This document shows, in pieces, positions 5,749 through 7,257 of a stretch of 10,066 bases of DNA. The position numbers were made by a program, and so were the translations under genes. The DNA is taken from IMG/VR virus record IMGVR_UViG_2551306491_000002; one strand, written 5' to 3'. This DNA is from a virus. Its lineage: Duplodnaviria > Heunggongvirae > Uroviricota > Caudoviricetes. Positions within the stretch are counted from its first letter, which is position 1. Every line of letters begins with the position of its first letter. The notes beneath the pieces were generated by a model. It was not told the DNA's origin. It did not search any database and saw only the letters and a list, made by a program, of their open reading frames with translations.

Positions 5749-7257
5749 TGGCAATTCTTGATGATGTGATTGGCGTTTTTTCACCAGGATGGAAAGCGGC
5801 AAGGCTGCGTTCCCGTGCGGTGATCCAGGCTTATGAGGCCGTAAAAACGACGCGGACACACAAAGCCCGGCGGGAAAACCGAACTGCCGACCAGTTAAGC
5901 CAGTACGGGGCCGTGTCGTTACGTGAGCAGGCCCGTTACCTTGATAACAACCACGATCTGGTTATTGGTGTATTTGACAAGCTGGAAGAACGGGTGGTGG
6001 GGAAAAACGGGATTATTGTCGAGCCACATCCGGTATTACGCAATGGGGCCATTGCCCGTGATCTGGCAGCGGAGATACGCACCCGATGGAGTGAATGGTC
6101 TGTCAGTCCGGAAGTCACCGGGCAGTTTACCCGTCCGATGCTGGAACGTCTGATGCTGCGTACCTGGCTGCGCGATGGTGAGGTGTTTGCCCAGATGGTT
6201 TCCGGGCGCATAAACAGCCTGACGCCTTCTGCCGGTGTTCATTTCTGGCTGGAGGCGCTCGAGCCAGACTTTATTCCCATGACCAGTGATGAGAGCAACA
6301 GGCTGAATCAGGGCGTGTTTGTTGATGACTGGGGGCGTCCCGAAAAATATCTGGTGTATAAAAGCCGTCCCGTATCCGGACGGCAGATGGAAACCAAAGA
6401 AGTGGATGCAGAGCGAATGCTGCATCTTAAATTTGTTCGCCGTCTGCACCAGATGCGCGGGACGTCTTTGTTGTCCGGTGTGCTGATCCGCCTCAGTGCC
6501 CTGAAAGAGTATGAGGATTCTGAGCTGACTGCAGCAAGGATCGCCGCTGCTCTGGGGATGTACATCCGGAAAGGCGATGGGCAGAGCTATGAACCGGATG
6601 GTAATGGCAGCAAGGATAAGGAACGCGAGCTTACCATTCAGCCAGGCATTATTTACGACGATCTGAAACCCGGCGAAGAAATCGGAATGGTGAAGTCGGA
6701 TCGCCCCAATCCTAACCTTGAAACTTTTCGTAATGGTCAGTTGCGTGCCGTGGCGGCGGGCAGTCGTCTGAATTTTTTCCAGTACAGCGCGCAACTATAA
6801 CGGCACTTACAGCGCCCAGCGTCAGGAGCTGGTTGAATCCACTGATGGCTACCTGATCCTGCAGGACTGGTTTATTGGTGCCGTCACCCGCCCGATGTAT
6901 CGTGCCTGGCTGAAACAGGCTGTGGCATCCGGTGTTATCAGGCTACCCCGCGATCTTGACCGTTCTTCACTGTATACCGCGGTGTATTCCGGACCGGTGA
7001 TGCCGTGGATTGACCCTGTTAAGGAGGCTGAGGCCTGGAAAATTCAGATTCGTGGTGGAGCAGCGACAGAATCAGACTGGGTACGTGCAGGTGGTCGTAA
7101 TCCGGATGATGTCAAACGTCGGCGCAAGGCCGAAATTGATGAAAACCGCAAGCTGGATCTGGTATTTGATACCGATCCGGCCAGTGATAAAGGAGGCAGC
7201 AGTGCCGCAACGAAACGACAGGAGCCGCAGCACACCGACGACCAGTCCGAAGAATAA
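5748..7257 (+). pseudogene. portal protein (lambda gpB family) with an interrupted frame; either a frameshifted pseudogene or a sequencing error
   Basis: Frame 0 runs 5748-6800 (ATG 5748 in a TGATG overlap with the gpW-like stop; ORF track starts the same frame at GTG 5676). Frame 1 is open from 6772 to 7257. The junction reads ...AAGSRLNF / SSTARNYNGTYSAQRQELVES... and becomes one continuous portal-like protein if a single T is removed from the T6 run 6773-6778. Confidence 0.8.

Follow-up and report, generated by a model that had tools for sequence, protein, structure and literature searches.

The portal gene of prophage Sp3 in Escherichia coli O157:H7: a frameshift that is very probably an inherited, inactivating mutation

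In the stretch of DNA analysed here (10,066 nucleotides, hereafter the window), the gene for a lambda-family portal protein is divided between two reading frames. The break is, with high confidence, an inactivating mutation that has been fixed in the Escherichia coli O157:H7 lineage within the cryptic lambdoid prophage Sp3, and is neither an artefact nor a recoding signal. The frameshifted portal of Sp3/CP-933K is an ordinary pseudogene that has been annotated and published before. What the present analysis adds is the form of the lesion (AT in place of G), its absence from the O55:H7 strain CB9615, and corrections to the annotation of the locus. The part of the published Sp3 account that was available does not describe the G→AT nature of the lesion. 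Beyond such bookkeeping, the finding of a portal pseudogene matters little.

Portal reading frames and identity of the prophage

The 5′ portal fragment (5748–6800, plus strand, frame 0) starts at the same ATG as the intact homologues and matches the Pfam family Phage_portal_2 (PF05136, 8.3e-74). Its product of 350 residues is formed by native residues 1–343, with serine 342 changed to asparagine, and by seven aberrant residues (FQYSAQL), after which a premature TAA is read at 6798–6800 on the plus strand. Frame 0 translated from 5676 or 5748 gives ...AAGSRLNFFQYSAQL*, and the end of the frame-0 translation from the upstream ORF has also been read as ...RAVAAGSRLNFFQYSAQL*. The rest of the protein is found in the +1 frame, in which the last stop upstream of the junction is a TGA at 6769–6771 (plus strand). 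From 6772 this frame is open, begins IFSSTARNYNGTYSAQRQELVES..., and runs to the TAA at 7255–7257, which coincides with the stop of the intact homologues. The 3′ fragment (6772–7257, plus strand) encodes native residues 343–502, and the C-terminal 159 codons of the portal sit in the +1 frame; the third frame across the region is full of stops. The TGA at 6769–6771 and the TAA at 6798–6800 set the 5′ and 3′ limits of the segment in which a change of frame can rescue the protein, and a run of six T lies within it (6773–6778, plus strand; T5 in all intact homologues). Direct reading and translation thus bear out the first-pass annotation, which had placed the portal in frame 0 up to 6798–6800 and in the +1 frame from 6772.

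The same annotation had described the protein as a gpB-like portal that becomes continuous once a T is deleted from 6773–6778, and this description holds. Removal of one T in silico results in an uninterrupted portal of 502 residues that covers positions 3–354 of the 354 in the PF05136 profile (272.5 bits), while the 5′ fragment covers only positions 3–324 (249.3 bits); both scores are above the curated cut-off of 32.9. The truncated portal therefore ends 30 positions short of the end of the profile and lacks whatever follows. Residues 304–489 of the repaired portal align, unbroken through the junction, to the solved portal chains 8vhx_D and 8k38_A, the latter being lambda gpB. Lambda gpB belongs to the same Pfam family, and its residues 332–474 align with residues 305–440 of the repaired portal across the break, although the similarity is only distant (E = 2.5e-4). 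Its gene, like that of the window portal, comes after the genes for terminase and W, whereas the head genes downstream differ, with a protease-capsid fusion in the window and C/Nu3/D/E in lambda. The location between the TerL and W-like adaptor genes on one side and the head protease and capsid genes on the other is as expected of a lambda-family portal. Such a portal should be encoded by a single uninterrupted ORF of about 500 residues. Here, frame 0 stops after 350 codons and the remainder is in the +1 frame, and for this reason the locus is classed as a portal pseudogene and not as a functional member of the family.

Both sequence identity and chromosomal location assign the window to Sp3 (CP-933K). 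A 601-bp query at the break (6470–7070) is 100% identical to the chromosomes of O157:H7 Sakai, EDL933, and many other E. coli O157:H7 strains, and its full length is matched at 99% identity or more by 301 records. In the Sakai chromosome (NC_002695.2), the window falls within a feature named “prophage Sp3, lambda-like phage” (891124–929709) and is collinear with the Sp3 locus, window position 6001 being position 6532 of that locus (L001). The genes ECs_0826/ECs_0827 of Sp3 in Sakai and EDL933 are the same locus as that of the window and show no difference from it. A published table equates Sp3 with CP-933K and O-island 36, and lists the type III effector gene nleB2 among its cargo. The Sp3 portal has been scored as “D” (defective) in Table 1 of Asadulghani et al. 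(2009, PLoS Pathog 5:e1000408), and circularisation, replication, and packaging of Sp3 are all negative in Table 2 of that paper. The same authors describe the integrase as defective, the repressor and replication functions as absent, and the prophage as non-excising. The earlier suggestion of a portal-defective, cryptic prophage is thus supported by the identity with Sp3, by the pseudogene flag on ECs_0827, and by this published score.

The lesion, its ancestral state, and its distribution

The window was aligned with the portal genes of five intact E. coli prophages (FDAARGOS_433, ATCC 25922, S163-2, DEC9B, and ACN002) and of the CB9615 prophage. At 6772–6773 (plus strand), the window has AT where the intact homologues have a single G, which results in a +1 shift. 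The homologues read CTGAG-TTTTTCC and the window reads CTGAATTTTTTCC at the same place, so that the intact codons AGT TTT TCC (Ser-Phe-Ser) stand against AAT TTT TTC C. In the DNA alignment with the five prophages the sole gap column is window 6773, where the first-pass annotation had put the junction. Because there is no other gap, the two frames represent one broken gene and not a chance pair of ORFs. The window portal, with A+T6, is 1510 nt long and meets its stop at codon 351, whereas its intact relatives (G+T5) have 1509 nt and 502 residues. The protein repaired in silico has N342 in place of the S342 found in each of the six intact homologues compared.

The five prophage portals all start at an ATG that overlaps the stop of the W-like gene. 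Among isolated phages, 16 cover the whole portal at 98.3–99.1% identity, each with a match of exactly 1509 bases; mEp460, cdtI, Tritos, Ayreon, and phi458 are among them. Taken with the CB9615 prophage, the portal DNA of the mEp460/cdtI-type phages is 98.3–99.9% identical to that of the window and has the same start, stop, and neighbours (terminase, W-like adaptor, and ClpP-protease/capsid fusion). These portals are encoded in one frame with G+T5, and in this they differ from the window portal, which has A+T6 and ends at codon 351.

The alignments indicate that the lesion is a G→AT change, that is, a substitution together with one inserted base, in a G+T5 ancestor, and not a pure expansion of T5 to T6. 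Either two steps, a substitution and the insertion of one base, or one complex event could account for the change. The first-pass description of a single-base shift at T6 was right about the extra base and the resulting shift of frame, but the alignments replace the implied A+T5 ancestor with G+T5 and the event with G→AT. A second T6 run in the portal gene, at 5776–5781, is read in frame, so T6 tracts are not unusual in this gene.

The distribution of alleles has been determined from exact matches of 89–90-mer probes at the site, counted in a set of 5,426 complete E. coli genomes. The window allele, A+T6, is present in 287 records and the ancestral allele, G+T5, in 562. The two one-step intermediates, A+T5 (the allele that correction of the frame would give) and G+T6, were sought in the same way and each was found in 0 of the 5,426 genomes. 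Among the matches listed, every A+T6 record that names a serotype is O157:H7 or O157, and the G+T5 records belong to diverse E. coli lineages. A+T6 is best read as a derived mutation that has been inherited clonally.

These counts bear directly on the proposal, also made in the first-pass annotation, that the break is a homopolymer sequencing or assembly error and that the portal is intact, with T5, in the true genome. The break does sit in a homopolymer, where indels are notoriously often miscalled, and deletion of one T does repair the frame. Yet the identical 90-mer occurs in 287 separately assembled complete-genome records with many strain names and sources, and the frameshift is therefore real. 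It is on this identity with 287 other assemblies that the case against an error in the window rests. The error-corrected allele, moreover, is in none of the genomes, and the adjacent G→A difference from all intact homologues is a substitution that a homopolymer miscall would not produce. The 287 genomes presumably include the Sanger-era finished Sakai and EDL933 sequences as well as later long-read assemblies. The proposal of an error has accordingly been given practically no credence. A phase-variable contingency switch, in which the T run would expand and contract reversibly to turn the portal on and off, is equally hard to credit. Homopolymer tracts can serve as contingency loci and a change of one base would toggle the frame, but slipped-strand mispairing at useful rates generally calls for tracts longer than six residues, and the polymorphism in tract length among close strains that marks such loci is absent from the probe counts. 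Sp3 is also without other essential functions, and switching of the portal would give no phenotype.

One intact relative of the window portal is informative about the age of the lesion. In CB9615 (O55:H7), an orthologous prophage adjoins ybhC at the same site and is 99.9% identical to window positions 1–9728, with eight mismatches and one gap. It has an integrase, an excisionase, a LexA-family repressor, and O/P replication genes, with no pseudogene flags, and its portal is intact at 1509 nt. Since the portal lesion is absent from the CB9615 lineage, it most likely arose after the O157:H7/O55:H7 split, and it is usable as a lineage marker. The CB9615 prophage has a CAG→TAG nonsense mutation at codon 334 of the capsid fusion gene (40084–42111 of its locus, L009; window 8201, C→T), a gene that is intact in the window. 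The sister lineages O157:H7 and O55:H7 have thus each disabled a different head gene of this prophage, independently of one another, a pattern expected of neutral decay. Between the O157 and CB9615 portals the only differences are at 6748, 6772, and 6773. The C→G change at 6748 (Ala334Gly) is private to CB9615 and the change at 6772–6773 is private to O157, and all three positions lie in a 26-nt segment, the rest of the 1.5-kb gene being identical. This clustering, by the GC-rich GGCGGCGGGCAG, could be a coincidence or a local mutational hotspot.

Recoding at the junction and consequences for the portal

Slippage of tRNA-Phe by +1 on UUU_U, or of RNA polymerase on T6, could in principle yield enough portal for function, possibly supplied in trans to other defective prophages of Sakai. 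Complementation of one Sakai prophage by another has been documented in general (Asadulghani et al. 2009, PLoS Pathog 5:e1000408). The segment in which the frame can be rescued (6772–6797) contains U6, the product of a +1 slip would equal the repaired 502-residue protein, and the 3′ portal fragment is still stop-free. As in the +1 frameshift of prfB, a +1 shift is needed and the P-site codon can re-pair (UUU U), UUU at 6774–6776 being perfectly matched by UUU at 6775–6777. The likeness to a prfB-type site goes no further. The frame-0 A-site codon is UUC, which is not a stop or a slow codon but a common, quickly decoded Phe codon. No Shine-Dalgarno-like element is located ~3 nt upstream of the shift codon, where the sequence reads ...GGCGGGCAGUCGUCUGAAU, with neither AGGAGG nor GGGGG near the site. 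The nearest G-rich stretch, GGCGGG at 6755–6760, is 13 nt upstream and thus incorrectly spaced; it is shared by each of the six in-frame homologues compared, and the sequence upstream of the shift site is the same in the in-frame homologues. The 82 nt downstream of the site fold no better than shuffled sequences (z = +0.80), which argues against a stable stimulatory structure. Transcriptional slippage in E. coli is efficient at runs of 8–9 residues or more, and the run of six T is shorter.

Conservation gives the same picture. The portal is in one frame in the five prophages, in CB9615, and in the 16 isolated phages, and 562 genome records match the ancestral allele exactly. Because all intact homologues examined encode the portal in one frame, the frameshift has arisen recently and does not mark a conserved site of recoding. 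The stop-free 3′ ORF is uninformative in this respect, because the 287 records are identical over the 90-mer and the 301 records at least 99% identical over 601 bp. A programmed +1 frameshift or slippage has therefore been rejected for want of an A-site stop, a Shine-Dalgarno stimulator, a downstream structure, and conservation. Sp3 is, in addition, not excised, replicated, or packaged (Asadulghani et al. 2009), and recoding that supplies a functional amount of portal is considered very unlikely. A −1 frameshift on the heptamer U_UUU_UUC has also been rejected, as the −1 frame reads PVQRATITALTAPSVRSWLNPLMAT*, which is not portal sequence. A terminator-like hairpin at 6752–6768, followed by the T run, is a weak match to the consensus and is not considered meaningful; the ancestral G+T5 sequence, read by eye and unscanned, would equally satisfy the T-count rule of the scan.

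Weaker forms of the same idea are also improbable. Spontaneous +1 frameshifting on U6 at trace levels, giving very little full-length portal, is considered very unlikely. It is equally unlikely, and finds no support in the computed evidence, that low-level +1 slippage provides a trickle of full-length portal, or that the 350-residue fragment has been kept because it co-assembles with, and poisons, the portals of close mEp460/cdtI-type relatives, whether incoming or resident in the same cell. If either of these variants were true, the pseudogene would participate in prophage–prophage interactions in O157 Sakai.

We therefore return to an inactivating mutation carried by the O157:H7 lineage. The change of the ancestral AGT TTT TCC to AAT TTT TTC C causes the ribosome to terminate at the TAA at 6798–6800 after 350 residues, and the last 159 of the 502 residues are not made. 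Judging from the alignment to solved portals and from portal architecture, the missing segment would include conserved portal core and C-terminal regions, and by analogy with the solved structures the crown at the C terminus and some of the wing are probably lost with it. The truncated protein is probably unable to form the dodecameric vertex, in which case no functional procapsid would be nucleated from Sp3. The truncation of the conserved domain leads us to infer that portal function has been lost in Sp3. The mutation is one of several independent decay events, with integrase, repressor, and replication functions lost as well, and is inherited vertically with the chromosome. Sp3/CP-933K would then be unable to build its own capsid and be locked into the O157:H7 chromosome.

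Neighbouring genes, annotation, and mosaic junctions

The surroundings of the portal gene are those of a typical lambdoid late module, with the lysis cassette first. A small terminase of the DUF1441 type (2946–3437, from annotation and Pfam) is followed by an intact, gpA-like terminase large subunit (3437–5539, plus strand; Pfam GpA_ATPase and GpA_nuclease) and by a W-like head-tail adaptor of 70 residues (5536–5748, plus strand). The adaptor is WP_001072975.1 in EDL933 and others, and is named “head-tail adaptor” in mEp460. Its TGA overlaps the portal ATG (TGATG), and the portal start is placed at ATG 5748 because of this stop/start overlap, which is shared by the intact homologues. Downstream, the ClpP-like prohead protease/major capsid fusion (7202–9229, plus strand; Pfam CLP_protease and Phage_capsid_4) is intact, with a single terminal stop. 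Its GTG start at 7202 lies behind a strong AAGGAGG, and the gene overlaps the 3′ end of the portal by 56 nt. Because the portal ends ~400 nt early, the protease/capsid gene would lose any translational coupling to it.

The annotation of the broken gene varies among records. In the Sakai RefSeq record, the 5′ piece (ECs_0826) is a hypothetical protein and the 3′ piece (ECs_0827, 6895–7257) a portal pseudogene. In EDL933, PGAP has annotated one “phage portal protein” CDS of 374 residues and another of 111 residues, the latter at 6922–7257, and most O157 records likewise carry two portal CDSs from PGAP and no pseudogene. The RefSeq 5′ fragment of 374 residues begins at GTG 5676 and overlaps the W-like gene by 73 nt; this start is probably an artefact of gene calling on a truncated ORF. 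The two PGAP “phage portal protein” CDSs of O157 should become a single pseudogene that starts at ATG 5748. The W-like gene, annotated in EDL933, CB9615, others, and phage mEp460, does not appear in the Sakai RefSeq feature table examined.

Scanning of the whole window for Rfam families and tRNA genes gave no hits, and a search of the window for the lambda cosN motif gave no match. A stretch of 675 bp (2272–2945) that separates the lysis cassette from the small terminase is without an annotated gene. It contains a terminator-like GC hairpin with a T run near 2305–2330 and a very GC-rich block at ~2725–2780, and an alignment of 97 nt with 80% identity places the first base of the cdtI record at window 2760. 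On account of that alignment, this stretch may be the cos region.

The identity with CB9615 stops abruptly at 9728/9729, inside ECs_0831 (9632–9907), and beyond ...GATATGACTG the two are unrelated. This point has the appearance of a mosaic recombination junction within a small head-tail gene. No DNA similarity could be detected between the small terminase gene of the window and its cdtI counterpart (L011, 185–724), despite the 98.8% identity between the portal genes of the window and cdtI. This difference points to another mosaic boundary in the packaging module.
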